Source: a virus. From it: a DNA stretch of 64,000 nt. Position 1 is the stretch's first letter, and the number at the start of each line of letters is the position of its first letter. The stretch lies in the IMG/VR virus record IMGVR_UViG_3300042544_001941, one strand, 5' to 3'. The notes below the pieces were generated by a model. That model saw nothing but the letters and a program-made list of their open reading frames with translations, was not told the origin of the DNA and did no database searches. Position numbers and translations under genes: made by a program. This document shows positions 1,228 to 33,311 of this stretch, piece after piece.

Positions 1228-1243
1228 AACTTCAAAATTTGAA

Positions 1244-10476: not shown

Positions 10477-10515
10477 ATTAGAAAATATAGATAAAATTAT
10501 CGACAAAGCAAAAAA

Positions 10516-10616: not shown

Positions 10617-11419
10617 GGGCTGAGATTACACCATTTTGAGATTGACTTGGGGACATTATTTGATTCTTCCCTTATCCACTACCTTTTGAGTAGTACCAAT
10701 CAGCGGCGGTCAATTAGATTAACCAATCCTTAAGTCGTTATATACTCTTTTAATACTCATTACTCATCAAAGATGCCTCCCTGATTCAACCTTGCGGGTT
10801 TAGAGAACTTTTTTAAAAATCACATCGGGCTTGAGACCCTTTGTGGCCGTGAACCCCTCACGACTATGTAGCCACCTGTCTACAACGACTGACGAACACT
10901 TCTTCTTGTATGATTTTAAGTTGTTAAACCAAAATTAACAAAATTTAGTTATCCGAATTTGGAAAGTAGTGGTTCGTCACCTAGCCAAGCCACCTTTTGA
11001 GCGACTCGATACTAAACTACTCTCTGTAACATCCCTGCTACCATATTTTTGGACTCCTTCAATACTAAACTCTTGGTAGAGTCTAATAAAGGATGATAAC
11101 GACACCACTCGTACTTCACCATACCTTTCGGTTTTAAGATTCCCATCATATTGAATCACGTAATTGTATAGTTGGATAACTATATTTCTTACAATAACTC
11201 TATGGATTATTCTTGTTGGTGTTCCCACCTCAACCAAACAACTCGGATTGCTTGGTCATCAAACCACTTTCCCTAAAGTGTCACCCTCAGTACTTAAGGT
11301 TCGATGATATTCCACTTGCCTACTCGAGTTCCATTACTGAAACCGCAACTTACCTCAACCAAAGGTTCGTCACTTTATCCCACTTTCGTGGTTTATTTTA
11401 ATCGACCATAGGCGGCCAA
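10617..11419 (-). ncRNA. Large structured ncRNA, probably GOLLD
   Basis: ~800 nt without credible ORF, higher GC, many GNRA-capped hairpins (ccacGAAAgtgg, accGAAAggt, aacccGCAAggtt), own promoter plus boxA-like leader, near tRNAs; family call from memory. Confidence 0.7.
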
Positions 11420-13861: not shown

Positions 13862-14002
13862 ATTATTCTTTGTTCATTTTTTTTATTTGTTCACGGAACG
13901 TGAACATTAACAATTTATGAACATTTAAAAATATAGGCAACATTGCCGAATTAAAACGATATAAAGTTTATACTAATAGTCATCATTGTCATATTTATTA
14001 GT

Positions 14003-14536
14003 ATGACAAACAGACTAAACGTATCGCTCTTACCGATACTGTACATCCTATTCGTGGGCTTATTGGTAAGGATTTTTCAACCGATTGAGGACCCAAAATC
14101 CGTCTACGTGGATAAAGTAGAGAACAAAGTGATTATTGGTAAAATGGCTAATAATCGAAATTTAGCTTTTGGGGCTAAAAACATTTTCCAAGAAATTTTA
14201 CAAGATAAGGATTATCTAATTGTCGAAGACATTACTAAAGCTGATTTAGTTTTTAGTGCTGAAATCTTATTTTTTGACGTTAATAAAACCAAGACTAATA
14301 TCTCAGTATTTCATTCAGATAAAGAAGAGACTTTGGTGGTAATGCGAGGTAAGTTAACAACTAAAGAAGGTAAGAAAATCAAAGAGGCAGTTGCCGAAGA
14401 ATCAAGTTCAGAAATCTCGACATCAACATTAATAACCGATGAAGGTAGTGATAAAATAAATCAACAAGCTCTTTCATCCGCGATTAAAAAGACGTGTGAA
14501 TCTTTAATAAATAAAGTGTTTTCAATTAAAAAGTAA
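14003..14536 (+). CDS. CsgG/LptE-fold-like envelope protein (paralog of 22637 ORF)
   Basis: N-terminal hydrophobic segment; FGAKNIFQEIL...INQQALSSAIKK parallels LGVANITMEYL...FNQSTISISTKK. Confidence 0.5.
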   Translation: MTNRLNVSLLPILYILFVGLLVRIFQPIEDPKSVYVDKVENKVIIGKMANNRNLAFGAKNIFQEILQDKDYLIVEDITKADLVFSAEILFFDVNKTKTNISVFHSDKEETLVVMRGKLTTKEGKKIKEAVAEESSSEISTSTLITDEGSDKINQQALSSAIKKTCESLINKVFSIKK

Positions 14537-14538
14537 AA

Positions 14539-16188
14539 ATGAAAAAATTATTAATTATCGGTGTGTTTTTATTATCCACCATTTCAACATTTGCTCAACT
14601 AACAGTCAATCAAACTATAACCCCAACAACGGGATTAAAGGTTGGTGACACATTAACGGTTAAGTACACTGTAACTAGAGGGACAACGACACCAAGATAT
14701 TTTTGGTTGAGGTATTCTTTTAACAATAAAGCGTTAGCTATGGTATCAAACAGTACTGTGTTCTCACAAGGTAGTTCAACTCAAACGTTTTTTACCGGTT
14801 GGAATAACTATAAGTTTACACCGGCACCGAATGTTGCTGATACACAATTATATGCACAATACACCACAACTCCTTGGGGATATGCCGCAAATAACGATTG
14901 GAATGTTGGTCAAATCACAGTTCAGAGAACTGATGCTGCAATCAACGGGGATATTGCAACTCAAAAATTTGTATTGAAGGACCAAAACACATATAATGAT
15001 ATTCATAAATTAGATTTATCATATGCAATTAATGACGCATCTACTAATATATCACCAATTACAAGAAGCTCAACAAATATTTCATTAAGTGGTGTTGTTG
15101 GGAATACTTCACAATTTAAAGTGAAAGTTTTATTCCCACAAGGATATGCAATTACTGACCATAATGTTCAATTAATGAAATTAAAAACAGATGGTAGTGG
15201 TACTATTGATTGGTCACAACAACCAATTGCTCAATTACCTTTAGATGCAACGGGTGAGGCATTATTTACAACACAAGTTAAAGTTGGTGATAGTTTAGGT
15301 GTGTTTGTTAGTCCTGCATCACAAAAGGCTTGGATGAATAATGTTATTACAGTTTCAGACGCATACAAAGCGTTTTTAGGACATTCACAAACAGATATAT
15401 CAGGAACTGCGAACTTCTTTACTTATCCAAATTTAGAGAAGAAGGTTGGTAACATCACTAAAAATGATAGTGTATTTAATGAATCAGATTCATATTACTC
15501 ATTTGCTTATGTTATGGGTCAAGACGTTTCAACAAATGCGTTCATTCCAACACAAGCGGCAACTTCTTGGAGATGGCATAGTGGTTTATTAAATCAAAAT
15601 TGGTTAGACGGTAATATCAAAAATAAAGTTACAATTGATACTCCCGTTAAAGAAGTATTTGCAGTTTACGCGTGGGGTGGTGACTTAAACTGGTCACATT
15701 CATCAGACCCTGCGGTAATTGCTAGTAGAATAAGTGCTGGACAATATACAAACTCAGTGAATTCAATTAATACTAAGACATCGATGTCAACACAATCAAT
15801 GTCATATAAAGCTGAGTCCGTTGAGACCGCTAAGTTAAGTGTAACATCAACATTAGAAAATGGTAAGGTTGTATTAACTACAAACTTAACAAAAGAAGGA
15901 TTGGCAGGATTGGAAGTTATTATGAATTATGACGAATCGAAATTAACATTGGATAATGTAATATTTGATGCAGGTTCTACAATAACAAACTTTTCAACAC
16001 ACAAAGACGGTAGATTAACTTTTGGTTCAATTGACCAATTGAAAACTGCAAGAATTAAGACAGGAACTCCGTATAAGTTGATATTCACACCAAAAACAAC
16101 TTTAACAAATACCGCCGGTTTATTCTACTTTGTTTTATCTGATGCTGTTGATGCGAAAGGAAATAAAGTTGATTTAATCGTCGAGTAA
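14539..16188 (+). CDS. Secreted protein with cohesin-like and dockerin-like domains
   Basis: Sec signal MKKLLIIG..FAQ; VSDAYKAF..GNITKNDSVFNESD; WGGDLNWSHS; C-terminal LAGLEVIMNYD beta-sandwich. Confidence 0.6.
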   Translation: MKKLLIIGVFLLSTISTFAQLTVNQTITPTTGLKVGDTLTVKYTVTRGTTTPRYFWLRYSFNNKALAMVSNSTVFSQGSSTQTFFTGWNNYKFTPAPNVADTQLYAQYTTTPWGYAANNDWNVGQITVQRTDAAINGDIATQKFVLKDQNTYNDIHKLDLSYAINDASTNISPITRSSTNISLSGVVGNTSQFKVKVLFPQGYAITDHNVQLMKLKTDGSGTIDWSQQPIAQLPLDATGEALFTTQVKVGDSLGVFVSPASQKAWMNNVITVSDAYKAFLGHSQTDISGTANFFTYPNLEKKVGNITKNDSVFNESDSYYSFAYVMGQDVSTNAFIPTQAATSWRWHSGLLNQNWLDGNIKNKVTIDTPVKEVFAVYAWGGDLNWSHSSDPAVIASRISAGQYTNSVNSINTKTSMSTQSMSYKAESVETAKLSVTSTLENGKVVLTTNLTKEGLAGLEVIMNYDESKLTLDNVIFDAGSTITNFSTHKDGRLTFGSIDQLKTARIKTGTPYKLIFTPKTTLTNTAGLFYFVLSDAVDAKGNKVDLIVE

Positions 16189-16189
16189 T

Positions 16190-18487
16190 ATGAAGAAACT
16201 ATTAGTAATATGTTTTTTACTAATTTCATTTTTAGGGTTCGGACAGAGCGTATCTGCTCCGGACTCTAAATCATTTATACCATCCACAACTGGACAAGAC
16301 GCAAGTGGATTTGTATTAAATGGTTTTAGTTCTACCTCAACACTTTTAGCATCGATTAGTTTAGTAAATCCACCATCAGGTACAACATTTACATTAAACA
16401 CCACAACAGGTTTAACTGCTGCAAGTGGATTTACATTATCGGGTAATAAGACTCGTTTGGTAGTAACGGGAACGATGGCAAGTATCAATACCGCATTAGC
16501 ATCCCTAAAAGTAAACACAGGTTCGGTAAGAGGTAATGTTTTATTATCAGTAGCGGCAACCGTCAATCCGACGGGATATTTTTATAACGGAACAAATGGA
16601 CACTTTTATAGACCAATATCAACCGGAGCGACTTATACAAATGCTAGAACACTATCATCACAACAAACATTCAAAGGTCAACAAGGATACTTAGTAACAA
16701 TTACTTCCGCAGATGAAGATGCATTTATTTTTAATAATGTACCTCAATCAAATATATGGTTTGCATTAACCGATGAAGCAAGTGAAGCAAGATGGACAAT
16801 TGATGCTGGACCTGAAGCGGGAACTCTAATTAAAATAAATAACGGACAACTAAACGGAAATATTCCTGGTCAATACAATAACTGGGCACCAGGTGAACCA
16901 AACAATAGTGGTAACGAAGATTATGCAGTAACAAAATGGAATGGTTCTCAATGGAACGATTTACCAAACCATTTTTCAAATCCGTATGTGGTTGAATTTG
17001 GAACTTGGACTAATCCTGATGATGCAACATTTACAGAGTTTTATACAAATTCGGTGACCCACTCAAACGGAGAAGTCCTAACCGCAAGATTTAATTTTGA
17101 TTTTGGTGGTAATGTGGATGAAACTAAATTCACCGCCAAAGCAAATACTTTTGTAAATAATGTATGGGGTACAACAACTAACACATCGAGAGCAATAAGT
17201 GGATTAGGTAAGGTTGATATTACAAATGATTTAGATACTGCAAAAATAAGTAATGGTGGTGTTAGAGCAACAACAACCACAGGACAAGTAGAATGGTGTG
17301 TGATATATGATTATGATGTAACCAATCAAAGATATAGAATTGGAATAGATAGTAGAGAAGTAAATGGAATAGTTACAAACCCATCTACAATTAGTAGTTT
17401 ACAATTATTTGATTTATGGAACGGTCCAGTAACATTTAATTCTTATAATGCAAATGGTTGGACTGAGGTTTATGTTTATACCTCAACACAATTTAATTTC
17501 TCAGGTTCGTCTTTCGCATCATCTATAAGGGCAGGAAATGGATTTTACGGATTAAAAGCTGAATTTACATTCACACCAACAACTTCGTATAAACAACACG
17601 GTATCGATTTATCATATACCAATCAAACCGAATTAAACACTTTATATAATAGTGTTGTAACGGTATCGGATGTGTTTATAGCATTTAAAGAATTATCAAA
17701 TGGTGGGATATTTGGAGACCAAAGTGGATTAGAATTTACATCGGGTATTCAATTTATGAACGCAGATGTAGATGGTAATGGTATTTTTAATGAAGCGGAT
17801 ACTTACAAATTATTACAACATTTAACAGGGGTTGCGCCGCTAACACAATATTCTACTTTAACTTATTTGATGAAATTATATGGTAAAACTGAATATGATG
17901 CAATAACTAAATCCAATTGGAGTAGTCAATTTAACTCAACAAGAAGTTTGTACCCATTTAATTTGAATAGTGGTACGTTGAATAACACTTACAACGTAAA
18001 TGTAACTTGGGTCGGTGATGTGAATCTATCACATTCGGCTCGACAAACAACAAGTGGTGTTGCAAGTAATTCAATTAGAACTATGAGTTTATTAACTATG
18101 AGTTCATCAGTTCCTAATCAAATCGATGCAACTCTTATGGGTGAAAACATCGGTGGTAAAGTTGTGATAACAATTTCGGTAGACCCTTTACAACAAGAAT
18201 TAGTAGGAACTCAATTCCAAGTAAATTATGATAATACCTCATTAGAATTTCAAAAGGTAGATTTTACAACAAAGGGTAATCCTACAAATTTTGGAACAGA
18301 CAGAGGTACGTATGTCACATTAGGTTCGTTAATTACAGATGGTTCAAATACATTGGATAAAACAACTGAATACAAAATAACATTCATACCAAAAGTCGGC
18401 ATTCAAGGAATATTGGGATTAACATCAATATCAACAACAGATGCAGTTAATAAAGACGGAAAACAATTAAAGGTGAAATTAAACTAA
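16190..18487 (+). CDS. Secreted C-type-lectin + dockerin + cohesin protein
   Basis: Signal peptide; GYLVTITSADE..WFAL..YNNWAPGEPNN..EDY..WNDL (CTLD); ADVDGNGIFNEAD (dockerin-type loop); LVGTQFQVNYD (cohesin-like). Confidence 0.7.
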   Translation: MKKLLVICFLLISFLGFGQSVSAPDSKSFIPSTTGQDASGFVLNGFSSTSTLLASISLVNPPSGTTFTLNTTTGLTAASGFTLSGNKTRLVVTGTMASINTALASLKVNTGSVRGNVLLSVAATVNPTGYFYNGTNGHFYRPISTGATYTNARTLSSQQTFKGQQGYLVTITSADEDAFIFNNVPQSNIWFALTDEASEARWTIDAGPEAGTLIKINNGQLNGNIPGQYNNWAPGEPNNSGNEDYAVTKWNGSQWNDLPNHFSNPYVVEFGTWTNPDDATFTEFYTNSVTHSNGEVLTARFNFDFGGNVDETKFTAKANTFVNNVWGTTTNTSRAISGLGKVDITNDLDTAKISNGGVRATTTTGQVEWCVIYDYDVTNQRYRIGIDSREVNGIVTNPSTISSLQLFDLWNGPVTFNSYNANGWTEVYVYTSTQFNFSGSSFASSIRAGNGFYGLKAEFTFTPTTSYKQHGIDLSYTNQTELNTLYNSVVTVSDVFIAFKELSNGGIFGDQSGLEFTSGIQFMNADVDGNGIFNEADTYKLLQHLTGVAPLTQYSTLTYLMKLYGKTEYDAITKSNWSSQFNSTRSLYPFNLNSGTLNNTYNVNVTWVGDVNLSHSARQTTSGVASNSIRTMSLLTMSSSVPNQIDATLMGENIGGKVVITISVDPLQQELVGTQFQVNYDNTSLEFQKVDFTTKGNPTNFGTDRGTYVTLGSLITDGSNTLDKTTEYKITFIPKVGIQGILGLTSISTTDAVNKDGKQLKVKLN

Positions 18488-19380
18488 TGAAAAAGTTATT
18501 ATTAATTCTGTCACTAATTTTGACAACATTTGTTACAAACGCACAAATACAAAAACCCGATACATTACAACTATCACCAAAAGAACTATTTGGAGAAAGT
18601 GATGATTGGAACGATGTGGGTATATTACAATCATATGTTAATTTTTCAAAAGATGTACTTTCATCATCAAATCTTTCAATTGGTGTAATTGGTAGACAAG
18701 TATCAACTACTCTTAATTTAGGGTATCATAAATCATCTATGAATGGGCAGTGGGGACATTCATTCGCAGCATCAATAAATCCTATATGGAAGTATTATGG
18801 TGTGGGTTATGGTTTAAGTAGAAATACCGAAAAGAGAACAACTACAATACAATCATTTTATTCAACCGATTTTGATTTCCAAAAAGATATTACACTATCA
18901 TTTATAGATGTATTCAGAACTAAAAAGTGGGGAACATTTGGATATAGTTTAACAGCATCAAAATCATTTTGGGGAACTTATCAAGGTGAGTGGGAAGGAA
19001 AATATACAGTAGATGAAAATGGTGATTTTAAAGATTTAATATATCCACAAATGCCAGCATCATCTGAACTTACTTATAGAGGTATGGCGATGTACACTTA
19101 TACATTTAAAACTAAAAGAGTAAATATTTCACCTCAGTTATTTGCAATGAGTGATGTATATAAAGTATTCAAAGATGGAACTGAATCGGATTTATCATAT
19201 GTAGATGATTTCAATTTGGACTTATATTATGGTACATCTATTGATTGGAAAATAACTAAAAGATTTGTGTTAAATACTAATATTAGATATAACACAACTT
19301 GGGATAAATTAAGTGAATCAGTTGGATATAAAAAGAGTAACCCAATCCTATTTATGATAGGAACAAACTTTCAATTCTAA
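18487..19380 (+). CDS. Outer-membrane beta-barrel protein
   Basis: Signal peptide, alternating aromatic strands, C-terminal IGTNFQF BAM-type signal. Confidence 0.7.
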   Translation: MKKLLLILSLILTTFVTNAQIQKPDTLQLSPKELFGESDDWNDVGILQSYVNFSKDVLSSSNLSIGVIGRQVSTTLNLGYHKSSMNGQWGHSFAASINPIWKYYGVGYGLSRNTEKRTTTIQSFYSTDFDFQKDITLSFIDVFRTKKWGTFGYSLTASKSFWGTYQGEWEGKYTVDENGDFKDLIYPQMPASSELTYRGMAMYTYTFKTKRVNISPQLFAMSDVYKVFKDGTESDLSYVDDFNLDLYYGTSIDWKITKRFVLNTNIRYNTTWDKLSESVGYKKSNPILFMIGTNFQF

Positions 19381-19637
19381 TGAAAAAAGTATTATTACTC
19401 ACATCGTTAGTTTTAACTTTTTCATCTTGTGTTAGATATAAGATTAAAATGGTGGAATATGATGGTACAGGTTATTCATTATATCTACCGATGAAAAAAT
19501 ATGGAATGGGTAAATGGTATGACGATAATGTAATATACTATTCGGAAGAAATGGCTAGATTTAAAATTGAAAAATGGAAAAGTAATGAGTATTATTTAAA
19601 TCCTTTTAAAACTTCAAAATATATTAAAATACAATAA
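19380..19637 (+). CDS. Small lipoprotein
   Basis: MKKVLLLTSLVLTFSSC lipobox. Confidence 0.7.
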   Translation: MKKVLLLTSLVLTFSSCVRYKIKMVEYDGTGYSLYLPMKKYGMGKWYDDNVIYYSEEMARFKIEKWKSNEYYLNPFKTSKYIKIQ

Positions 19638-19979
19638 ATGAAAAAATTATTATATATATCATTGATTTTAATGGTTGGGTGTACAAAAATGGAAATAGAA
19701 CCCACTCCACCTCCTGTTGAGAAGATATTTACAGTGGGTGAGAGTACTGTTATTAATGGACAATCCATATATTTTGACCTACCGTCCTCAGGAATATATA
19801 CCCTAACGTTTGTTGACGTTCAGACAGGACAAGTTATTAGTCGGGAAAAATTTACAGGCCAATCCGGCGAAAATGTGAAGAAAATATATACCAAATCCAT
19901 AATGTCGAAGTATTTATATTTGATACTTGCTTCGGAAGACAAAACCCAAATAAGTAAGACAAAACTAACACTAAACTAA
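19638..19979 (+). CDS. Lipoprotein with Ig-like/T9SS-CTD-like domain
   Basis: LMVGC lipobox; YTLTFVDVQTGQVISRE..GENVKKIYT. Confidence 0.55.
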   Translation: MKKLLYISLILMVGCTKMEIEPTPPPVEKIFTVGESTVINGQSIYFDLPSSGIYTLTFVDVQTGQVISREKFTGQSGENVKKIYTKSIMSKYLYLILASEDKTQISKTKLTLN

Positions 19980-19980
19980 A

Positions 19981-20358
19981 ATGAAAAAACTAATCTTAAC
20001 GGTATTTGTACTATTTGCCCTTACGGGGTGTTATAAAGATGATTTACTTCTTCCTGATATTAAACAGGATTTAAAACCTGAATTACAAATTGCCAATAGC
20101 GTTGGTATTAAGTTAGAATCGGCTTTTGTAACCAAAGAAGTATCAATGAATGTAAAACTTGAGAAATCAGGTACAGTAACTTTAAAAATATTCGATATTG
20201 GAAATAAAGTAGTTTCAAAAGAAACTATAAATGTGAAAGAGGGTGATAATGTGTTAAAAATATACACATCAGCATTACCTTCTTCAGCATATAGAATTGG
20301 GTTATTTGATAACTCGGGGACTATGTTGGGTATCACAGATTTTAATAAAATAAACTAA
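19981..20358 (+). CDS. Lipoprotein with T9SS type-A CTD-like domain
   Basis: ALTGC lipobox; VTLKIFDIGNKVV..EGDNVLKIYTSALPSSAYRIGL. Confidence 0.6.
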   Translation: MKKLILTVFVLFALTGCYKDDLLLPDIKQDLKPELQIANSVGIKLESAFVTKEVSMNVKLEKSGTVTLKIFDIGNKVVSKETINVKEGDNVLKIYTSALPSSAYRIGLFDNSGTMLGITDFNKIN

Positions 20359-20378
20359 AAAATTAAAAAATAAAAATT

Positions 20379-21098
20379 ATGGCAGACAGAAACGGAGACG
20401 GAGTTGTTTATCATCGCTCGGATTGTGGTGATAACTATGTAAGATGGTATGGATTCGGAGGAGATGGACCTTGTTCGGCGTGTGATACGTGGGGATTAAC
20501 CAATAAAGCAATAAGATACATTCACGACCATCCTGAAATAAATCATAGAGTTGAAGATGTGGTAGGTAGAGAATGGGAAGAAGAAGTTATGCCGGTACTT
20601 ATTAATGTTGGAAATCAAATAGAATCTGGTGTTAAAGAGGGATATGAAGTGGTAAAAGATGGTGCTGTGATGGCATATAACTGGGCGGACGAAAACGCTT
20701 GTAATATAGCAATAACCGCAGTAATCTCTGCCGGTGTTGTTGCGGCATTTACACCAGCACAACCTGCTGGAGCGGCAACTTCAACTACGTTATCGTTGAT
20801 GGCTACGCCTGTTCTTTACGTTGCAGATGTGGCAGCTAAAATGGCAGTATCAACGGCAATGGGTGTAATAGTGGCAGATGGATTTTTATCAATACCTGGT
20901 GTTGGTGAAAACATTGACTCAGAATTATTAAGAAATGTATGTTCAAATTGTATCTATCATAGTTTAGATTCGGCGGCATTATGGGCTACCCCTGCTGGAG
21001 TTGGTATTGCAATCGGAACTGCAGTAGCACCTATTATTGCGGATTTGATATGTACTAGAACTTGTCCTAATGGATTCAGTAAAGCATTAGGTGCATAA
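20379..21098 (+). CDS. Cys-containing protein with hydrophobic Ala/Gly-rich C-terminal helices
   Basis: CSAC, CSNC and CTRTC motifs; hydrophobic tail. Confidence 0.65.
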   Translation: MADRNGDGVVYHRSDCGDNYVRWYGFGGDGPCSACDTWGLTNKAIRYIHDHPEINHRVEDVVGREWEEEVMPVLINVGNQIESGVKEGYEVVKDGAVMAYNWADENACNIAITAVISAGVVAAFTPAQPAGAATSTTLSLMATPVLYVADVAAKMAVSTAMGVIVADGFLSIPGVGENIDSELLRNVCSNCIYHSLDSAALWATPAGVGIAIGTAVAPIIADLICTRTCPNGFSKALGA

Positions 21099-21137
21099 TG
21101 TTAATAAAATAAAATAAAAAATTAAAAAACAAATACA

Positions 21138-21458
21138 ATGTCAGAAGAAGTAGAACAAAACAACGATGGTACTTGGTCAGGTCTTAAAAAGACCATTATT
21201 GGTGTTGCAACAACTGCGGTAATGGGTCTAGGGACTTGGGGAGTAACACAAATAACAGGTGGTGGAGATGAACCCGCACCTGTACAACAAGCTGCACCTG
21301 TAATTAATATTACAAACTCAAACCAACAAGCTCAACAGGCTTCAGGTGGTGGAGGTAAAACTGTTATTATTAAAGAAAAAGAAACCGTTAAAGAACCTGC
21401 AAAACCGGTTAAGAAAAAAGAAGGTGATGAATTTAAAGAGGAAGCACCAAAATGGTAA
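21138..21458 (+). CDS. Single-TM membrane protein
   Basis: TIIGVATTAVMGLGTWGV segment, low-complexity tail. Confidence 0.7.
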   Translation: MSEEVEQNNDGTWSGLKKTIIGVATTAVMGLGTWGVTQITGGGDEPAPVQQAAPVINITNSNQQAQQASGGGGKTVIIKEKETVKEPAKPVKKKEGDEFKEEAPKW

Positions 21459-21464
21459 TTTAAT

Positions 21465-22070
21465 ATGAAAGAAGAACAATCAGGTGGATTTAAAGAATTA
21501 TTGAGTAATATGATGAAACGTAGGTGGTTTATCACCGCTATCGTTTTAGGTGGGTTTATGATAATCATTATGGGGATATTTGGGGCCATTCTAAATAAAT
21601 CCGCAATAGAAGGTGAGTGGAAAGAACTTTTACTTTTATTATTGGGAGCCTTCATTGGTTCTTATGGTAAAATCATTGACTATTGGTTTAGTGATACTGA
21701 TAAGGATAAGATGTTGGTTCAAAAAATGGACGAGGAAGATGGTACATCATTAAGTAATACTGCCGATATGCCAAACAATCCAATTGTACCAATGTCAACT
21801 GCACCATTAGTATTATCAGAATCAACCTCACAAGAAACAGTACAAGTGGTTGAAGCACCAAAAGAAGAAAAGAAAGGTGTTGAAATCGATGAAGATGGTG
21901 ATGGTGTAATGGATGGTTTAGATTTCGATGGCGATGGTAAAATTGACGAATACTTCGCACACAGACAATGTGAACACGTTTGGGGTGACTTAGACGGAGA
22001 CGGAACTGAGGAGTGTTTAAAATGTGGAAAAATTAGAGATGACTACGCTGAAATGACAATGGAAGGATAA
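21465..22070 (+). CDS. Two-TM protein with DxDGDG Ca-binding loops and CxH/CxxC finger
   Basis: DEDGDGVMD, DFDGDGKID, DLDGDGTEE; CEH..CLKC. Confidence 0.7.
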   Translation: MKEEQSGGFKELLSNMMKRRWFITAIVLGGFMIIIMGIFGAILNKSAIEGEWKELLLLLLGAFIGSYGKIIDYWFSDTDKDKMLVQKMDEEDGTSLSNTADMPNNPIVPMSTAPLVLSESTSQETVQVVEAPKEEKKGVEIDEDGDGVMDGLDFDGDGKIDEYFAHRQCEHVWGDLDGDGTEECLKCGKIRDDYAEMTMEG

Positions 22071-22105
22071 AATAAATAATAAACAAAAGACAAAAAAACA
22101 AAACT

Positions 22106-22381
22106 ATGGGATTTCTTAAAGAACTTTTTAAAGACAACAATGACATCAACGAAAAATCAGTAGTTGGATTCTTATCATTCATAATGATGGTAATTGCATT
22201 AATCGTCGACTTGGTAACAGGTTGGATGGGTAAGGAATTATTAATCAATGAATATATTTTCAACGGATTTTTAGTAATTACTTTAGGTGCATTTGGTATT
22301 GCATCGGTTGACAAATATATCAATAGAAAAGCTGAACACGACAAAAATAAATTAGATTCTGAAACAGAATCTGAAGGATAA
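22106..22381 (+). CDS. Two-TM small membrane protein (holin-like)
   Basis: Two hydrophobic helices, charged C-terminus. Confidence 0.6.
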   Translation: MGFLKELFKDNNDINEKSVVGFLSFIMMVIALIVDLVTGWMGKELLINEYIFNGFLVITLGAFGIASVDKYINRKAEHDKNKLDSETESEG

Positions 22382-22408
22382 TAGGGCATTGACAAAAAAA
22401 CTAAATTT

Positions 22409-22633
22409 ATGACAACAATTTTAAAAAAAATTGAGGAGAAAATAGTGCAAGGTTTCTTAGCACTTGGCCTCATCTGGGTTACATTAGCATTAACAGTACA
22501 AGTATTCTTTATTTACTTACAATTTTCAGGACAAGAAGAAAGAGCAGGTGAAATATCAAGAAAAGTAAGTTGGAAAATTGATGGTAATTTTAAAAACAAC
22601 CCTGATAACATATGGTATGAAGGACCAAAATAA
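22409..22633 (+). CDS. Small single-TM protein
   Basis: GFLALGLIWVTLALTVQVFFIYL. Confidence 0.65.
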   Translation: MTTILKKIEEKIVQGFLALGLIWVTLALTVQVFFIYLQFSGQEERAGEISRKVSWKIDGNFKNNPDNIWYEGPK

Positions 22634-22636
22634 AAA

Positions 22637-23359
22637 ATGATGAAAAAAATATTTTTACTTTTAGGTATTATACTTGTTAGTATAACCTCATTTGGACAAA
22701 CAGTTGGTAAAACTCAAACGGAGCAATATAAAGCATCTTTTGAGACTGCAATAGACATTTCACAATTCTTGGATTATGATGGAAAACAAATCCCAATTCA
22801 AATCCTAAAGGCCGGTATCTCTGACGAGATGTATGAGATGTATCCTGAGTTAAAGGAGAAAAGAGTTGGGTTAGGTGTTGCAAACATCACTATGGAATAT
22901 TTGGAAAATCTTAATCGTTTCAAATTTACTGAAGACAAGACGGAGATAAAAAACAGAATGGTAAAACAATTCCAAGCATCTCAAGCTGGTATTTCTGAAA
23001 ACAAATTGGATGGTAGGGGTAAAATTAATTTGGCCGAATATTTTGTAACCGTTGAATGTTATGATTATTCGGTATCAGAAGATGAAACAGTTAACTTAAA
23101 AGATGGGGTAAAAAATTTAATGGTTACTCGTATCGGTCTGCAAGTTCGTTTTACAAACGCAGAAACCGGTGTAGTTTTTGGAGCATCAGGATTAGGTGAG
23201 GCTAAAACAACAAGAGAATTAACTCTTTTATCAGATGCAACAGTTGACCCTGTAAAATTCAACCAATCCACAATATCAATATCAACCAAAAAAGCATTAG
23301 ATATCGCTTGTGCTAGAATTTTAGATAGAATGATTAAAAAGGGTATTTTTGAGAAGTAA
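22637..23359 (+). CDS. CsgG/HfaB-family-like envelope protein
   Basis: Signal peptide; NLNRFKFTED, AEYFVTVECYDY, RIGLQVRFTNAETG pattern of the CsgG fold. Confidence 0.65.
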   Translation: MMKKIFLLLGIILVSITSFGQTVGKTQTEQYKASFETAIDISQFLDYDGKQIPIQILKAGISDEMYEMYPELKEKRVGLGVANITMEYLENLNRFKFTEDKTEIKNRMVKQFQASQAGISENKLDGRGKINLAEYFVTVECYDYSVSEDETVNLKDGVKNLMVTRIGLQVRFTNAETGVVFGASGLGEAKTTRELTLLSDATVDPVKFNQSTISISTKKALDIACARILDRMIKKGIFEK

Positions 23360-23386
23360 CTTAAAAAAACATATATTTTAAAATGA

Positions 23387-23410
23387 AGGGGTTTAAACAC
23401 CCCTTTTTTT
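23387..23410 (+). terminator. Intrinsic terminator
   Basis: aagggg-loop-cccctttttttt. Confidence 0.7.
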
Positions 23411-23423
23411 ATATTTATAAGAT

Positions 23424-23603
23424 ATGAAAAAGTTTTATAGAGTTAGGGACAATAAAGTGTTTTTTGGGGTTTGTGAGGGATTAGGTCATCATACTAACGT
23501 TGACCCGTTAATTTGGAGACTTTTATTCTTCTTTTTAATTTTTACCCCTGCACCAATAATAACAGGTTATTTATTAACCGCAATTTTAACTAAAAGCATA
23601 TGA
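23424..23603 (+). CDS. pspC: PspC domain protein (not in ORF track)
   Basis: MKKFYRVRDNKVFFGVCEGLGHHTNVDPLIWRLLFFFL...GYLL matches the PspC pattern; TATTTATA 4 nt upstream. Confidence 0.8.
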   Translation: MKKFYRVRDNKVFFGVCEGLGHHTNVDPLIWRLLFFFLIFTPAPIITGYLLTAILTKSI

Positions 23604-24448
23604 GAAAAAATTCATTAATCACAGGTTTAGTAATTTTATTACTATCTATGACAACATCGTCATTTTCACAAGTTAGTAATTGGAGAAGTAATCCACCTAC
23701 ACCTCAAAGGTCTACACCATCAATACAACCATCCGCTCCACAAAGAAACGATGTTAGTAATTGGAGGAGTCAACCACCATCAAGAGGGTATGATAGACCT
23801 ATAAGAACAAGACCCGGTTCAAACATAATCGTTAGAGACCCGTGGTTTGGTGGATTAGGGTGGGGATGGAATAGATGGGATATGTGGGGAGCACCTGCAT
23901 TTGGTTGGAACTTTTGGCAACCGTCTTGGTATTGGAATGATTGGGGATATAGACAACCACAAAGAATTTATATTTACGAAGATGGTAAGAGAGATACAAT
24001 TAGAGGTAAAAAGCCGGTAATTAGTTTTGGTATTCAAAGAACAACCGATAAACAATTGGGCGGATTCTTTACCATCGGTAATAAGGGATATTTTATAATG
24101 GAATATAATTCAAGCGTAGAGAGAGATAATTCAACATTCTTTCCATTTGGTAATATAACCCAAGTAGACTTTCCAATGGTCAGTGATTTAGTTCAAAGAA
24201 ATAGTTTCTATATCGGAGCCGGTAAAAGAATAAAGAGAACCGGTGTTCACTTTATGATTGGTACTGTTTCCGAAGATGTAAAATGGAGAGGTAGAGATGA
24301 TTTGGGATATATTACTTTTCCAAAGTATTTGGATAGATTCACCACTATAAAAGTGGGTGCATTACACGATTTCAAAAACTTAACAATAAAGTTTGATTAC
24401 GACCCTGTAATCAATAATAAAACCTTTGGATTAGGTGTAAATTTTTAA
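23600..24448 (+). CDS. Outer-membrane beta-barrel protein with Pro/Trp-rich N-terminal region
   Basis: Signal peptide; duplicated VSNWRS; C-terminal FGLGVNF. Confidence 0.7.
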   Translation: MRKNSLITGLVILLLSMTTSSFSQVSNWRSNPPTPQRSTPSIQPSAPQRNDVSNWRSQPPSRGYDRPIRTRPGSNIIVRDPWFGGLGWGWNRWDMWGAPAFGWNFWQPSWYWNDWGYRQPQRIYIYEDGKRDTIRGKKPVISFGIQRTTDKQLGGFFTIGNKGYFIMEYNSSVERDNSTFFPFGNITQVDFPMVSDLVQRNSFYIGAGKRIKRTGVHFMIGTVSEDVKWRGRDDLGYITFPKYLDRFTTIKVGALHDFKNLTIKFDYDPVINNKTFGLGVNF

Positions 24449-24451
24449 AAT

Positions 24452-25198
24452 ATGTTAGATTTTGATTTAAAAGTTTATGAAATGAGGGATGTTCTAACAA
24501 CTGATGAATATAACGAGTTGTCAGAATTGGTTGCGGATTTTAAAATTGATTTGAATAAAATAAATTCATCTTTAGGTTTTTTACAATGGTCTAAAAAAAT
24601 CCAAGATACAATGAAAAGTAAACATCCTGAGGAATTTGAAAGAATGAAATCAACCAATCTTTTAAATTATGAGGATTATATGTTATTGTCGGTAATTAAT
24701 GACGAAGTTGGGTTGAATGTGAATGATAAAAATCTTTTTCATACTGATTATGATTATTTTAATTTTTTATTGACTCACAGAGATGATGAATTAATGAATA
24801 CTAGAATTGTTAAATTATATGACAAAGCGTTTAGATTTATACTAACCGATTTATTTAAAAAGGAAGTGATACATAAAGATGTCTTATTCGGTCATTTTAA
24901 TGTGTATCCTAAAAATTCTTTTATTGTAAATCACACGGATGGACCAACCGCAAGTAACAGATATTTTACTATTCTATTTTTCTTAAATAAAGGTAGAACA
25001 TATGAAGATGGCTCAATATTAAAAGTACATAAAGAAAATGAAACAGTTGAATTTATTCCTGATTTCAATAAAATAATTTTATTAGACCATATGAAATACA
25101 ATTATTATCACGAAGTAACTAAAAATAATTCTGATAATGTTCGTTATTCATTATACACACCATTTAGTATTGACGACTATAATAATCGATTACAATAA
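24452..25198 (+). CDS. 2OG-Fe(II) oxygenase (prolyl-hydroxylase-like)
   Basis: HTD...YYHEV...VRYS facial triad and 2OG-binding Arg. Confidence 0.8.
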   Translation: MLDFDLKVYEMRDVLTTDEYNELSELVADFKIDLNKINSSLGFLQWSKKIQDTMKSKHPEEFERMKSTNLLNYEDYMLLSVINDEVGLNVNDKNLFHTDYDYFNFLLTHRDDELMNTRIVKLYDKAFRFILTDLFKKEVIHKDVLFGHFNVYPKNSFIVNHTDGPTASNRYFTILFFLNKGRTYEDGSILKVHKENETVEFIPDFNKIILLDHMKYNYYHEVTKNNSDNVRYSLYTPFSIDDYNNRLQ

Positions 25199-25219
25199 GA
25201 ATAATAATAATAATAATAA

Positions 25220-26659
25220 TTGAAAAAGATAACCCTATTAATTTTATTTGTGACACTAACATCAATTAAACTCCTTGGTCAGACCTACACCCAAAGTTTT
25301 GTTGATAAATGTACCGGTGAAAAAAAGATAGCCACCACAACTATGATTAATGGGTATGCGACCGTATCTTTTTATAATCAAATAAGAACATTCACACCTT
25401 TAGAAGTTCAAACAGGAGTTGTACAGGGTTGGTTATTATCAACAAAAACTACATATGAATCATTAACCTGTCCCGTTATAAATAATCCTATAGTACAACA
25501 AGCAGTAACAAACGCAGCTGCGGCAACTGCAACCGCAGCCGCCGCGTCCGCAGCATCATCAGCCGCAAGTTCTGCGGCGTCATCATCGGCAAGTGCTGCG
25601 GCAAGTAGTTCTGCAAGTTCAGCGGCTGCAAGTTCAGCAGCATCAACACCTCCACCAACACCACCAACACAAAGTAGCTCAACTCCACCACCCGCTAGTG
25701 GTAGTTCATCACAAAGTGGAGGTAGTTCTTCATCATCTTCATCACAAAGCTCGGGTAATTCATCTGAAAGTAAGACGGAAACAAAAACCGAAACTAAATC
25801 AGAAACAAAGAGTGAAACTAAATCCGAATCTAAATCAGAATCTAAATCTGAAAGTAAGAGTGAAGAGAAGAAGGAAGAATCTAAATCAGAATCGAAAGAA
25901 GAAAAAAAGGAAGAAAGTAAATCAGAAGAGAAAAAAGAAGAAAAGAAAGAGGAAAAGAAGGAAGAGAAAAAAGAAGAAAAGAAGAAAGAAAAGGCTGCAG
26001 TATCTAATCCAATGTTACTTTCTTCAGATTTATCAACAATAGAATCTCCCGATGGTAGATGGTTACAATCTGCAACAATCGGAGTGTCTAAATCTTCATT
26101 GATGGGTGATAAAAGTTATTCGGCGAATACGGTGATTATGAGTGATTTAAAAACATTCATTGTAAGTGGTGGATATACTAAGATGGATTTTTCAAACGGT
26201 AAATTAAACGCGATACATTCTTATTCAAGTGCGTTTGCATATTTGAATGGGAACTATATGAACTTATTAGGATACACGTGGATTAAACCAACACAAAAGA
26301 AAGGTGTATTTGGTTACAATTTAGGTCTTATTAATTTATTATTGAAAGATGAACAGAATAAAAAGTTTAACCATAATATGTCAACATCAGTTGTAGCGTT
26401 TTGGACAAAACCATTTCAATATAGTAGAAAATTAACGATATCTCCACAGGTGTTCACAATGTTTGCACCTATATCATATAATAGCGCCGCACAAGTAACC
26501 ACAGTTAATAGACATATGGGATTTCTATTAGGTTCTTCTTTTGATTATAAGATAAGTAAAAGATTCGGTCTTAGTGTGAATTATAAATTAAGTGGTAACA
26601 CTGCACCGGGTTCTCCGTTCTTAAGTAATTTCTTGGTTGGTAGTAGAATGATTTTATAA
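25220..26659 (+). CDS. Secreted protein: N-domain, long Ala/Ser-Pro-Glu/Lys linker, C-terminal beta-barrel
   Basis: TTG start, signal peptide, low-complexity tracts, aromatic beta-strands. Confidence 0.7.
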   Translation: MKKITLLILFVTLTSIKLLGQTYTQSFVDKCTGEKKIATTTMINGYATVSFYNQIRTFTPLEVQTGVVQGWLLSTKTTYESLTCPVINNPIVQQAVTNAAAATATAAAASAASSAASSAASSSASAAASSSASSAAASSAASTPPPTPPTQSSSTPPPASGSSSQSGGSSSSSSSQSSGNSSESKTETKTETKSETKSETKSESKSESKSESKSEEKKEESKSESKEEKKEESKSEEKKEEKKEEKKEEKKEEKKKEKAAVSNPMLLSSDLSTIESPDGRWLQSATIGVSKSSLMGDKSYSANTVIMSDLKTFIVSGGYTKMDFSNGKLNAIHSYSSAFAYLNGNYMNLLGYTWIKPTQKKGVFGYNLGLINLLLKDEQNKKFNHNMSTSVVAFWTKPFQYSRKLTISPQVFTMFAPISYNSAAQVTTVNRHMGFLLGSSFDYKISKRFGLSVNYKLSGNTAPGSPFLSNFLVGSRMIL

Positions 26660-26730
26660 AAAAACCCCCAATGTAGAAACATCAGGGGTTCATTGACAAA
26701 AAAACTAAACGTATCTCTTAACGATACTAA
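26660..26730 (-). ncRNA. Putative antisense sRNA 'D' ending in terminator
   Basis: Complementary to 14004-14040, 22387-22405 and 22089-22104; ends in aacccc..ggggg-T-run hairpin. Confidence 0.5.
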
Positions 26731-27753: not shown

Positions 27754-29775
27754 TTACAATATTTTTTTTGTAAATGTTAATTTTTCGTCTTTAAATTTAA
27801 GTGTAATAGAAGTATTTTCAACAATATTACCTTTCAATATCTCTTCACTTAAGAAATCTTCACATAGATTTTGAATAATCCTTTTAATCGGTCTTGCACC
27901 ATATTCTTCCTCAGAATTTAGTTCGTGAATCTTCGCAATTACGGATTTGTCAAATGTAATCTTAAAGTTCTTCTCCTTTAATCGGTCATTCAATCGTGAC
28001 AATTCAATATCAATGATTTTTTTCAATGTGTCATCATTTAAAGGGTTGAACGTGATAACATCATCAATACGGTTTAAAAACTCGGGATTGAATTGTTGTT
28101 TTAGTGCTTTTTGAATTATCGATTTCTTCACTTCAGCTTTTTGAGTTTCTTTACTGTTAGTTGCAAAACCCATACCATCACCAAAATCCATAACCTTTTT
28201 AGCACCTACGTTTGATGTCATAATAATCAAAGTATTTGTAAAATTTACTTTTCTTCCAAAAGAATCGGTTAAATGTCCCTCATCAAGTATTTGTAATAAG
28301 ATATTGAATACGTCTTTATGTGCTTTCTCAATCTCATCAAATAATATTACAGAGAATGGATTGTTTTTAACTTTTTCAGTTAATTGACCTCCTTCGTCAT
28401 AACCAACATAACCAGGAGGAGAACCAATTAATCTTGATACATTATGTTTCTCCATAAACTCACTCATATCAACCCTAATTATTTTATTAGGGTCACCGAA
28501 TAATGTTTCCGCTAATGATTTTGCCAAGAATGTTTTTCCAACACCTGTTGAACCTAAGAAGATGAATGAACCAATTGGTTTATTGGTATCTTTAATACCT
28601 ACACGATTTCTTCTTATCGCTTTTGAGATTGTCTTAATCGCATCATCTTGACCAATAACTTTAGACGATAGTATATCTTCTAATTTTAATAACTTTTCAG
28701 TTTCTTTAGAGTCTAATTTACTAATTGGAACTCCTGTCATATTGGATACGATTTCGTACACATCTTCGACAGTCACAGGAGTTTTATTTTCCTTTTGTTT
28801 TATCGTCCATTTTTCTTTTTCATCATCGAGTTTCTTTAAAATCTTTCTTTCCTCATCTCTCAATTTAGCGGCTTGTTCGTAATTTTGATTTTTAACTACT
28901 TGAACCTTTTTTTCTTTGATAGCTTCCGCGTCCTTCTTAAGTGTTTCAATTATCTCAGGAATTTTACCCGAGATTTTTTTGTCTGAACCTAATTCATCTA
29001 AAATATCAATTGCCTTATCAGGAAATTGTCTATCAGTAATATATCTTAAAGATAAAGTTGTTATTGTCTCAACAACATTGTCTTGATATTCAACCTTATG
29101 AAATTCTTCATATGAAGACTTTAAGTTCTTCAATATTTCAATCGTTTCAGATTGTGTTGGTTCCTTCAAGATAATTTTTTGAAATCTTCTAACCAATGCA
29201 GAATCTTTCTCAATATGTTTTTTAAATTCATCAAATGTCGTTGCACCGATACATTGCATTTCACCTCGAGCTAATGCGGGTTTTAAAATATTAGCAGCGT
29301 CCATAGCACCACTAGCATTACCTGCACCTACCATTGTGTGTAATTCATCAATGAATACAATTACATTAGGATTTTCTTGAAGTTCGTTTAATATCGCCTT
29401 AATTCGTTCTTCAAATTGTCCTCTATATTTCGTACCAGCAACAAGTGATGTTAAATCTAACGACACCAATCTTTTATCCAACAAATTACTCGGACAAACA
29501 CCTTTGTGAATTTGTATTGCAAGTTTTTCAACGAGAGCAGATTTACCAACACCCGCATCACCTACAATTACAACGTTATTCTTTTTTTTGCGAGAAAGAA
29601 TTTGGGAAATTCTCTTCACTTCGTTATCTCTCCCAACAACCGGGTCAATCTTTCCTTCTTCTGCGAGTTTAATTAAATCTCTTGAGAAATTATCAAGGAT
29701 TGGAGTTGTAGAAGTTCCTCTTCTATTTTTTTGATAAGGTTTTGGACCCCCGTCTTCTAAAAAGTCTACCGACAT
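27754..29775 (-). CDS. clpC: ClpC-like AAA+ ATPase lacking the N-terminal domain
   Basis: Two Walker A (GDAGVGKS, GSTGVGKT), UVR middle domain (QNYEQAAKLRDE), GMGF ClpP-docking loop. Confidence 0.9.
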   Translation of the reverse strand: MSVDFLEDGGPKPYQKNRRGTSTTPILDNFSRDLIKLAEEGKIDPVVGRDNEVKRISQILSRKKKNNVVIVGDAGVGKSALVEKLAIQIHKGVCPSNLLDKRLVSLDLTSLVAGTKYRGQFEERIKAILNELQENPNVIVFIDELHTMVGAGNASGAMDAANILKPALARGEMQCIGATTFDEFKKHIEKDSALVRRFQKIILKEPTQSETIEILKNLKSSYEEFHKVEYQDNVVETITTLSLRYITDRQFPDKAIDILDELGSDKKISGKIPEIIETLKKDAEAIKEKKVQVVKNQNYEQAAKLRDEERKILKKLDDEKEKWTIKQKENKTPVTVEDVYEIVSNMTGVPISKLDSKETEKLLKLEDILSSKVIGQDDAIKTISKAIRRNRVGIKDTNKPIGSFIFLGSTGVGKTFLAKSLAETLFGDPNKIIRVDMSEFMEKHNVSRLIGSPPGYVGYDEGGQLTEKVKNNPFSVILFDEIEKAHKDVFNILLQILDEGHLTDSFGRKVNFTNTLIIMTSNVGAKKVMDFGDGMGFATNSKETQKAEVKKSIIQKALKQQFNPEFLNRIDDVITFNPLNDDTLKKIIDIELSRLNDRLKEKNFKITFDKSVIAKIHELNSEEEYGARPIKRIIQNLCEDFLSEEILKGNIVENTSITLKFKDEKLTFTKKIL

Positions 29776-29798
29776 ATGTGTATGATTTAGTATTTGTA

Positions 29799-29830
29799 CA
29801 AACTTAACATTTTTCATTCAAAAAAACAAA
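29799..29830 (-). promoter_or_regulatory. Bacteroidota sigma70-type promoter of clpC
   Basis: TTTG-N20-TAAGTTTG. Confidence 0.65.
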
Positions 29831-29932: not shown

Positions 29933-30301
29933 ATGATAACATTATTTAAAGACCCATTTTTCCAAGGTTTCGATAGCGTGTTCGAAACTTCAAAGTACTT
30001 AAAAAGTCCTGAAACTCGTATTCGTAAAACTGAAACTGAATACGTTGTTTTATTAAGTGTTCCTGGTTTAACCAAGGAAGATTTAAAAATTTCCACAAAG
30101 GAAGGAATACTTAAAATTTCTTTTGAAAAAGAGGAGAGTGACGATAGTGTCTACTTTACAAGTAGTTTCGTCAAATCATATAATATCCCCGACGATGTAA
30201 AAGAGAAGGATATTGTGGGTAAAGTTGAGAATGGTATTCTTGAATTAACTCTACCGATAGATAAGAAAAAATCAATAGAACGTCAAATCTCCCTTAATTA
30301 A
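29933..30301 (+). CDS. Small heat-shock protein Hsp20
   Basis: VPGLTKEDLKI, FVKSYNIP, ENGILELTLP. Confidence 0.9.
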   Translation: MITLFKDPFFQGFDSVFETSKYLKSPETRIRKTETEYVVLLSVPGLTKEDLKISTKEGILKISFEKEESDDSVYFTSSFVKSYNIPDDVKEKDIVGKVENGILELTLPIDKKKSIERQISLN

Positions 30302-33310: not shown

Positions 33311-33311
33311 A

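Follow-up and report, generated by a model that had tools for sequence, protein, structure and literature searches.

What a large phage would gain from a run of 17 genes whose products almost all carry export features is the question raised by positions 14003-26659 of a viral DNA stretch of 64,000 nucleotides (nt), IMG/VR record IMGVR_UViG_3300042544_001941, which was analysed as a whole and is called the window below. The 17 genes, g01 to g17, are referred to here as the block, and the results showed that its exported proteins are conserved as a set, with synteny in dozens of long IMG/VR contigs. The reading we favour, at a probability of roughly 0.5, is that it encodes a host-envelope protein set made from two late-type units by the steps set out below, and that it probably re-dresses the infected cell.

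The 17 open reading frames (ORFs) all lie on the plus strand and fill the interval, with gaps of -4 to 64 nt between them. Using simple rules for hydrophobicity and lipoboxes, a Sec signal, a lipobox or a transmembrane-like segment was called in 16 of the 17 genes, g16 being the sole exception, in comparison to 3 of the 46 ORFs of at least 100 amino acids (aa) outside the block in the same window (Fisher p 4e-11), in agreement with a first-pass annotation of the window, which had described 17 co-oriented and mostly exported genes. The signals of the signal-peptidase-I type end in [AGS]Q in 91/98 to 70/70 homologues, depending on the gene family, which is the Q-rule of Bacteroidetes signals (PMC5837995). 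Because of these Q-rule signals and of a cultured Flavobacterium phage relative, immuto, the host phylum was taken to be Bacteroidota, as had also been proposed earlier. Minus-strand ORFs within the block (e.g., 16174-16566 and 22033-22473) lie wholly inside conserved plus-strand genes and were treated as spurious.

The start of the block, its internal boundary and its end are marked by the following features.

13992..13999, + strand: TATTTATT motif, 3 nt before the g01 ATG, a late-type promoter or initiation motif
23385-23406, + strand: intrinsic terminator ending the first unit, an 8-bp G+C-rich stem followed by a T run
23412..23419, + strand: second TATTTATA motif, 4 nt before the g14 ATG
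26662..26691, - strand: 13-bp hairpin between convergent genes, which scores as a minus-strand terminator and is possibly bidirectional

Because of the terminator at 23385-23406 and the second motif at 23412, the block was divided into two transcription units, g01-g13 and g14-g17. The arrangement TATTTAT-N3-5-ATG is found before the terminase (35459) and portal (37272) genes as well as before g14 (23412), so that the late-type TATTTAT start of the block, which had been noticed at first pass, is shared with late genes, and the shared motif supports, as far as sequence can indicate it, a co-regulation of the block with these genes. A scan for sigma-70 promoters gave 62 in comparison to 63.7 in shuffles, i.e., no enrichment.

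Conservation was followed mainly through g13, which matches 508 IMG/VR loci, with 80 retained loci at 84-96% identity, and whose family comprises 5,947 protein clusters at 90% identity, all of them unnamed. Per-gene locus counts were obtained by tblastn of the 17 proteins against 158 fetched loci. The order g01-g02-g03-(g04)-g06-g07-(g08)-g09-g10-(g11)-(g12)-g13 is kept in dozens of contigs, the longest of 326 kb, which is the synteny in other phages that had been named as a check on the first description, and within the block g04 and g13 show the highest conservation. Further, g01 was found in 119 loci, g09 in 137, g11 in 73, and g17 in 109, mostly as partial matches owing to its low-complexity linker, while g05 (3 loci), g08 (22, at variable positions), g14 (8), g15 (39) and g16 (2) are sporadic. 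In some relatives a single 703-aa cohesin protein and one lipoprotein stand in place of g02, g03, g06 and g07.

The cultured relative immuto (NC_055915) carries a reduced module, gp013-gp019, which sits among replication genes and consists of a C-type lectin protein, a secreted protein, a cohesin protein, homologues of g09 (gp016), g13 (50.6% identity) and g17, and a g01-like protein; its cohesin protein is annotated as cohesin domain-containing and ends in a textbook sorting domain of the type IX secretion system (T9SS). In marine relatives with about 35% identity to g13, a 987-aa dockerin-like/cohesin protein likewise terminates in a true T9SS sorting domain (Por_Secre_tail 4.3e-6), and it is accompanied by a candidate outer-membrane barrel at the g04 position, a lipidated g13 homologue and then g17-like and g01-like genes. 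In both immuto and the marine relatives the g17 homologue follows directly after the g13 homologue. Since g13, g17 and g01 are kept beside a cohesin protein in both, they were regarded as the deepest conserved core. Directly upstream of the immuto module, gp012 (L160 5936-6514) encodes a NUC1-type DNA/RNA endonuclease with the Sec signal MKKIFLLLLLPLLSFSQ, so that the envelope genes are accompanied there by a secreted nuclease. In a related freshwater contig an ORF judged by eye to be polyphosphate-kinase-2-like (L009 5055-6158, minus strand) lies directly upstream of the module.

Searches of named collections were less productive. The block had no megablast match among 50,697 phage records, a genome-collection scan with P0145 found nothing, and no viral loci were recovered for a distant CsgG-like relative (P0193). 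A g13 match in a 2.7-kb contig of a Thiobacillus metagenome-assembled genome proved to be a phage contig and is uninformative on the host. In PHROGs, 16 of the 17 block proteins had no match, g08 alone having two marginal ones (a family of unknown function at 8e-4 and a tail fibre/lysozyme family at 4.7e-3), and the NCBIfam scan of the 17 proteins returned noise only.

The two largest proteins of the block carry the evidence for glycan binding.

14539..16188, + strand: g02, 549 aa, secreted (signal ends FAQ), with a degenerate dockerin-like segment, the motif WGGDLNWSHS and a C-terminal cohesin
16190..18487, + strand: g03, 765 aa, secreted, with a C-type lectin, a variable middle, one dockerin-type Ca-loop, the motif WVGDVNLSHS and a C-terminal cohesin

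The paralogy of the two covers the C-terminal ~300 aa (BLASTP 4e-14), as expected from the two large secreted paralogs of the first description. In the AlphaFold2 (AF2) model the C-terminal 123 residues of g03 form nine strands with a predicted local distance difference test score (pLDDT) of 84-97, and in Foldseek the best 49 matches of this part were all cohesins (E 1e-7, target template-modelling score 0.64-0.70). Pfam Cohesin (PF00963) was matched by 15 of 25 members of the g02/g03 family, at best with 1.2e-6, g02 and g03 themselves falling short of E 0.1, and the family profile matched cohesin 4ums at E 0.027; the cohesin of g02 is thus a predicted one, assigned from its family. The lectin of g03 was found directly by Lectin_C (PF00059) at residues 162-267 (1.5e-6, 29.3 bits in comparison to a cut-off of 22.6) and in 13 of the 25 family members, and the EPN and WND motifs for Ca and sugar binding are retained in 55/55 g03 orthologues. 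The most variable stretch of g03 is its middle region, residues 321-480. A further motif, W-x-G-D-[VL]-[ND]-x-S-H-S, is invariant in 30/30 aligned g02/g03 relatives some 60-90 residues before the cohesin; it may bind a metal or mark a site of processing.

The three lipoproteins of the block follow shortly downstream.

19380..19637, + strand: g05, 85 aa, small lipoprotein (lipobox FSSC), no export signal, accessory
19638..19979, + strand: g06, 113 aa, lipoprotein (lipobox MVGC), Ig-like beta-sandwich, paralogue of g07
19981..20358, + strand: g07, 125 aa, lipoprotein (lipobox LTGC, then YKDD), with a C-X-K-D-D export signal and a T9SS-CTD-like beta-sandwich (CTD, C-terminal domain)

Among these, g06 and g07 are related to each other (BLASTP 4e-8). 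After its lipidated Cys, g07 reads C-Y-K-D-D-L and most of its homologues C-x-K-[DE]-D, g06 showing a partial match and g05 none. The corresponding surface-export signal, C-X-K-(D/E)2 (LES), was defined in Capnocytophaga and works with Flavobacterium signals (PMC5080379). These lipoproteins had been described at first pass as T9SS-CTD-like, and of this claim the lipoboxes of g05, g06 and g07 were recovered, while the CTD likeness of g06 and g07 is weak and lies below all cut-offs: g07 reached 1e-3 with DUF3244 and 0.017 with Por_Secre_tail (PF18962; 15.8 bits in comparison to 27), among the g06/g07 relatives Por_Secre_tail was matched at E <=0.01 in 3 of 25 and DUF3244 in 9 of 25, and hhalign of g06/g07 gave P 3.8e-4 to the CTD of immuto gp015 and P 0.033 to the marine CTD. 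Both g06 and g07 are stand-alone lipoproteins and not the C-terminal CTD of a Sec-exported cargo.

The highly conserved g13 is considered here together with g01 and g12.

22637..23359, + strand: g13, 240 aa, secreted non-lipidated CsgG-fold protein, assigned by AF2, Foldseek and family profile
14003..14536, + strand: g01, 177 aa, N-terminal transmembrane anchor (transmembrane-like 7-25) and alpha/beta domain, probably of the LptE/CsgG-like lipoprotein type
22409..22633, + strand: g12, 74 aa, single-transmembrane protein, fused to the N-terminus of g01 in many relatives

The AF2 model of g13 (pLDDT 82, predicted template-modelling score 0.72) had as its best Foldseek matches the CsgG structures 4uv2, 4uv3 and 6l7a (E 1e-6, template-modelling score 0.55), followed by PelC, GNA1162, FlgT and LptE, with PelBC and LptDE structures also among the matches, and its best viral structural match is annotated CsgG. 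By itself g13 had no Pfam match at E 0.1, while Pfam CsgG (PF03783) was matched by 13 of 35 divergent relatives, at best with 1.9e-17, and the family profile aligned with E. coli CsgG at 1e-3 over residues 1-183, placing the conserved YPxL of g13 on the YPAS of the CsgG constriction loop. The lipobox Cys is absent from g13 and 18 close homologues (0/19), whose signals are of the signal-peptidase-I type and end in AQ or GQ; a marine relative (L167:10001-10705) does carry a lipobox. The model has a long beta-hairpin (135-153/157-174), neither face of which is hydrophobic and whose tip carries an invariant S-E-D-E, and a second hairpin region that is polar (pLDDT 63-72); judged at the level of sequence, g13 thus does not have the two amphipathic transmembrane hairpins of the CsgG type. 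No Pfam or NCBIfam match to the CsgF, CsgE or curlin (CsgA/B) families was found in the 17 block proteins. We therefore place g13 in the CsgG superfamily by fold and regard a curli-type pore, the role that the first-pass annotation had given for CsgG, as unlikely, because g13 has no lipid anchor, no CsgF/E/A/B partners and no hydrophobic transmembrane hairpins.

The same annotation had named g01 as a second, paralogous CsgG-fold protein. The fold was confirmed for g13, but g01 showed no similarity to g13 in BLASTP, and hhalign of the two aligned only local stretches of 27-28 columns (P 0.002-0.006, probability 6-14%), so that g01 is no detectable paralogue of g13 at the sequence level. The language-model (Atlas) neighbours of g01 were LptE, DUF4410 and Lipoprotein_16 at 0.89-0.90, and Lipoprotein_16 was matched (6e-5) by 3 of 30 pooled g01 and barrel-family proteins, a pool in which the matching members are not specified. 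This suggests, as a lead and not a result, that g01 contains a related alpha/beta lipoprotein-type domain. Fused g12-g01 forms are about 218 aa long (e.g., L111:8542-9198).

Three genes encode candidate outer-membrane beta-barrels.

18487..19380, + strand: g04, 297 aa, candidate outer-membrane beta-barrel (signal NAQ, C-terminal NFQF)
23600..24448, + strand: g15, 282 aa, secreted, N-part rich in Pro and Trp, C-part beta-rich with GVNF at its end, candidate barrel
25220..26659, + strand: g17, 479 aa, with a signal peptide, a two-Cys N-domain, a linker and a C-terminal candidate barrel domain homologous to g04

The identity of g04 across loci is 81-95%, and its profile aligned with the C-terminal family of g17 in hhalign (97.6%, E 4e-12, 191 columns). 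The Atlas neighbours of g04 are all outer-membrane barrel families; it had no PDB or Pfam match, and the family profiles of g01, g04, g15 and g17 found nothing meaningful among PDB sequences. In g17 the linker, of about 190 aa, is of low complexity, first Ala/Ser and then Lys/Glu. For g15, hhalign detected no relation to g17 and no PDB match or other supporting homology was found. All three are therefore candidates, put forward from the signal peptide, the C-terminal residue (F in g04 and g15, L in g17) and the language-model neighbours.

In the favoured reading, the Sec, lipoprotein and beta-barrel assembly (BAM) machineries of the host would deliver the block products to the envelope of an infected Flavobacterium-type cell. 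There, g13 and the membrane-anchored g01 may serve the paralogous barrels g17 and g04 as a periplasmic ring or plug, as gene adjacency and the structural neighbours suggest, an arrangement that would resemble PelC-PelB, LptE-LptD and CsgG-CsgF more than a true curli pore. The likeness to PelC-PelB and LptE-LptD (5t0z, 9h80, 5ixm) lies in a small alpha/beta CsgG/LptE-like protein beside a candidate outer-membrane barrel gene, but PelB and LptD have no sequence relationship to the block barrels and the pairing comes from gene adjacency alone. The surface part would be formed by the modular g02 and g03, of which g03 would carry a Ca-dependent mannose-type C-type lectin, and by the lipoproteins g06 and g07; surface display of g02 and g03 is favoured because the cohesin protein of relatives has a T9SS sorting domain and g07 has an export signal. 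These proteins might form a glycan-binding layer over the dying cell and its debris, and the likeliest purpose would be to mask or occupy surface glycans, which would block superinfection and the loss of progeny on debris, or else to make the cell adhere to particles or to other cells. Masking of the receptor and capture of cells would be the most economical purposes, and the aggregation, superinfection exclusion or grazer avoidance suggested by the first-pass annotation would likewise be conjectural roles. Superinfection-exclusion lipoproteins of the T5 Llp type are likewise phage-encoded and exported during infection and prevent the adsorption of progeny to the infected cell or to its debris, although there a single small lipoprotein blocks one receptor, in comparison to the multi-protein lectin/cohesin module here.

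Several findings weigh against this reading. With just 3-4 nt between it and the ATG, the upstream motif could serve translation initiation instead of being a promoter. The 17 genes are better seen as a core with variable additions, because g05, g08, g14, g15 and g16 are accessory. Of the cohesin/dockerin-lectin subunits claimed at first pass, the cohesin fold and the lectin stood and the dockerin did not: Dockerin_1 (PF00404) was matched by 0 of the 25 g02/g03 family members and no PDB profile match was found, the canonical DxDxNGxxxxxD loop occurs once in g03 (45/54 orthologues) and not in g02 (0/70), and the dockerin-like part of the g03 model has a pLDDT of 45-62. Finally, according to Pfam and NCBIfam a T9SS CTD is absent in this clade from g02 and g03, which end in the cohesin, so that the two proteins may stay periplasmic.

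Systems of this kind have been described in part. A CsgG/CsgF 'partial curli operon' is known from pelagimyophages of the HTVC008M group (PMC7029224) and from the Methylophilales phage Melnitz (PMC9004378), with proposed roles in uptake and 'sibling capture' (PMC7029224) or in lysis timing (PMC9004378). As here, these are aquatic T4-like myophages in which a CsgG-family gene lies in a small exported-protein cluster within a variable region, in a host without the system, and Melnitz and the present phage both encode a transfer-messenger RNA (tmRNA; PMC9004378). The present block differs in having no CsgF and a g13 that is non-lipidated with acidic hairpins, and it adds the lectin, cohesin, candidate barrels and LES lipoproteins and has a Bacteroidota target; when g13 was compared by tblastn with the CsgG pelagimyophages and Melnitz it was undetected, immuto being the sole match. 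With E. coli CsgG (4uv2, 4uv3, 6l7a) g13 shares the fold, the profile match over 1-183 and the YP motif in the constriction loop, but it has no Pfam match, no lipobox, no CsgA/B/E/F partners and polar hairpin tips. The nine-strand C-terminal cohesin module is that of cohesin-dockerin assemblies (2jh2, 5nrm, 2y3n), and the immuto cohesin protein with its surface anchor is like an anchoring scaffoldin; in contrast to cellulosomes, the block has no true dockerin or attached enzymes, is phage-encoded and addresses a Gram-negative host. A 2026 paper described a 'Host-interface island' of 17 genes in FKo-2, among freshwater Flavobacterium jumbo myophages (PMC13573597), with secreted and lipoprotein candidates proposed to modify the host surface and described together with acyl-carrier proteins (PMC13573597). 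It is, like the block, a conserved multi-gene secreted/lipoprotein island, the two having been compared by description only, and unlike it (PMC13573597) the 64-kb window gave no hit in a search for acyl-carrier protein motifs. The first-pass statement that no such phage system was known thus needs to be narrowed, since CsgG/CsgF clusters and the Host-interface island are published, but for the combination of lectin, cohesin and CsgG fold we found no published description.

The remaining genes of the block are the following.

20379..21098, + strand: g08, 239 aa, Cys-rich N-terminus and three Gly/Ala-rich hydrophobic segments, accessory, no family match
21138..21458, + strand: g09, 106 aa, weakly hydrophobic anchor and a Pro/Gln-rich, charged tail, core
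21465..22070, + strand: g10, 201 aa, single-pass membrane protein (transmembrane 25-43) with DxDGDG Ca-loops and a Cys-rich end
22106..22381, + strand: g11, 91 aa, two-transmembrane membrane protein
23424..23603, + strand: g14, 59 aa, PspC-domain membrane protein, accessory (Pfam PspC, PF04024, 3e-17, 62.6 bits in comparison to 25)
24452..25198, + strand: g16, 248 aa, cytoplasmic 2-oxoglutarate (2OG)-Fe(II) oxygenase, accessory (2OG-FeII_Oxy_3 1.3e-7)

At least one EF/dockerin-type loop was present in 56 of 71 homologues of g10, so that both the Ca-loop membrane protein and the PspC protein of the first description were recovered, as g10 and g14.

A tentative and rather unlikely variant is that the block forms a self-contained display system, in which the CsgG-fold ring and the barrels would provide a T9SS-independent route and the lectin/cohesin proteins would dock on the export-signal lipoproteins, giving a cellulosome-like coat that captures neighbours or masks the receptor.

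It is doubtful, although some features of the block fit, that the block serves lysis, with the CsgG-fold g13, the barrels and several small membrane proteins (g09-g12 and PspC) gating or weakening the outer membrane and timing release, and with the lectin and cohesin secondary. A gated secretin or pinholin role was proposed for phage CsgG by Buchholz et al. (PMC9004378), the block has the late-type motif and a PspC protein (g14), and g09 has a spanin-like layout of membrane anchor and charged tail. However, no endolysin or holin was identified in or beside the block in the window, where the sole lysis-like match is a weak Rz-like one at 7857-8159, 6 kb off, and the immuto endolysin lies ~7 kb from the module, beyond a tRNA array. 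The polar hairpins of g13 are a poor fit to a membrane pore, and the conserved sugar-binding motifs of the lectin and the cohesins would be left unexplained.

Equally doubtful is a periplasmic assembly, in which the lectin and cohesin proteins would stay inside, bind periplasmic glycans or glycoproteins of the host, be tethered by g10 and the lipoproteins and remodel the envelope. Many periplasmic proteins are O-glycosylated in Bacteroidota, and this alternative would account for g02 and g03 being without a T9SS CTD in this clade, for the conserved dockerin/EF-type loops of the membrane protein g10 and for g05 and g06 being without a full export signal. The exact surface-export signal on g07 speaks against it, as does the T9SS CTD on the cohesin protein of relatives, which points to the cell surface.

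Quite improbable is the transport of something other than protein, by which a PelC/PelB- or LptE/LptD-like pair would move a polysaccharide, lipid or nutrient and the lectins would bind the polymer. PelC has a charged funnel, of which the acidic hairpin ring of g13 is reminiscent. The structural matches of g13 include PelC, PelBC and LptDE, a phage GT2 glycosyltransferase is encoded at 8187-9734, and macromolecule uptake was suggested by Zaragoza-Solas et al. That glycosyltransferase is, however, on the other strand, 4 kb off and beyond the tRNA array, the block encodes no polymerase, flippase or periplasmic carrier, and its barrels have no family match.

True curli-like type VIII secretion, in which a nonameric g13 channel in the outer membrane would export unfolded subunits for amyloid-like or lectin fibres, would agree with the CsgG fold of g13, the link of its family to Pfam CsgG, the YPxL/YPAS alignment and the long hairpin 135-174, and fibres for 'sibling capture' were proposed for pelagimyophages (PMC7029224), but it is very unlikely given the missing lipobox Cys in 19/19, the acidic S-E-D-E tip, the lack of CsgF, CsgE and curlin-repeat proteins, and the nature of g02 and g03, which are folded multidomain proteins of 60-80 kDa whose relatives use the T9SS instead. 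A decoration of virions, in which the lectin/cohesin proteins would meet them at lysis and attach through a dockerin-like virion protein for glycan adhesion, could draw on a Dockerin_1/EF-hand protein near the terminase (33285-34196) and on the late-type motif of the block, and is just as improbable, as virion assembly takes place in the cytoplasm while every candidate has a cleavable Sec or lipoprotein signal, the block has no convincing structural PHROG match, the immuto module sits among replication genes, and the 33285-34196 protein resembles a plain EF-hand pair.

The window as a whole belongs to a large T4-like phage of low GC content (~32%), with a T4-type large terminase at 35470-37227, a gp20 portal at 37283-39118 and a gp23 capsid at 42614-44338, the closest relatives of the capsid including Flavobacterium phage immuto and uncultured huge phages. 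Shortly upstream of the terminase, 33285-34196 (+) encodes a 303-aa protein with no signal peptide, an acidic Pro/Asp-rich tail and two EF-hand loops, DKNHNGKIDAQDF and DKNKNGKIDGEDF (EF-hand_7 7.7e-8, Dockerin_1 1.2e-6); having no export signal and looking like a plain EF-hand pair, it was set aside as a cohesin partner. Upstream of the block, the minus strand carries seven tRNAs, a tmRNA and a GOLLD RNA. The GOLLD RNA is full-length (10617-11024, -) and adjoins the tRNA array (Rfam RF02032, 311.8 bits in comparison to a gathering threshold of 150, E 2e-88), and the tmRNA (7382-7772, -) has the tag peptide GNVYNNMEVAGLLATSKVAA (ARAGORN; Rfam 103.6 bits). Upstream of the tRNA array are the GT2-type glycosyltransferase (8187-9734, -; Glyco_tranf_2_5, 2e-28) and a calcineurin-like phosphoesterase (9721-10506, -), phosphoesterases of immuto being found in a similar neighbourhood. 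Two possible lysis or envelope genes lie outside the block, namely the 100-aa single-transmembrane protein at 7857-8159 (-), whose match to the Rz-like spanin PHROG is weak (4.7e-4), and an ORF at 607-1272 (-) with an internal lipoprotein-like start (MRRILGLLLVVFLIGC). Directly downstream of the block, 27754-29817 (-) encodes a ClpB-like double-AAA chaperone (AAA_2 1.8e-69, ClpB_D2-small), and divergent from it is a 122-aa ORF (29933-30301, +) whose N-terminus resembles a small heat-shock protein; together they would be a phage-encoded disaggregase pair.

If the re-dressing of the infected cell with a lectin is true, adhesion, aggregation or the availability of receptors on the host would be under phage control in lakes, and the puzzling CsgG genes of aquatic myophages would be given a concrete function. 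Given the size of the g13 family, few uncharacterised modules of freshwater Bacteroidota phages are as widespread as the block, and since immuto, whose host is Flavobacterium strain LMO8, carries a reduced module, the question is directly testable.

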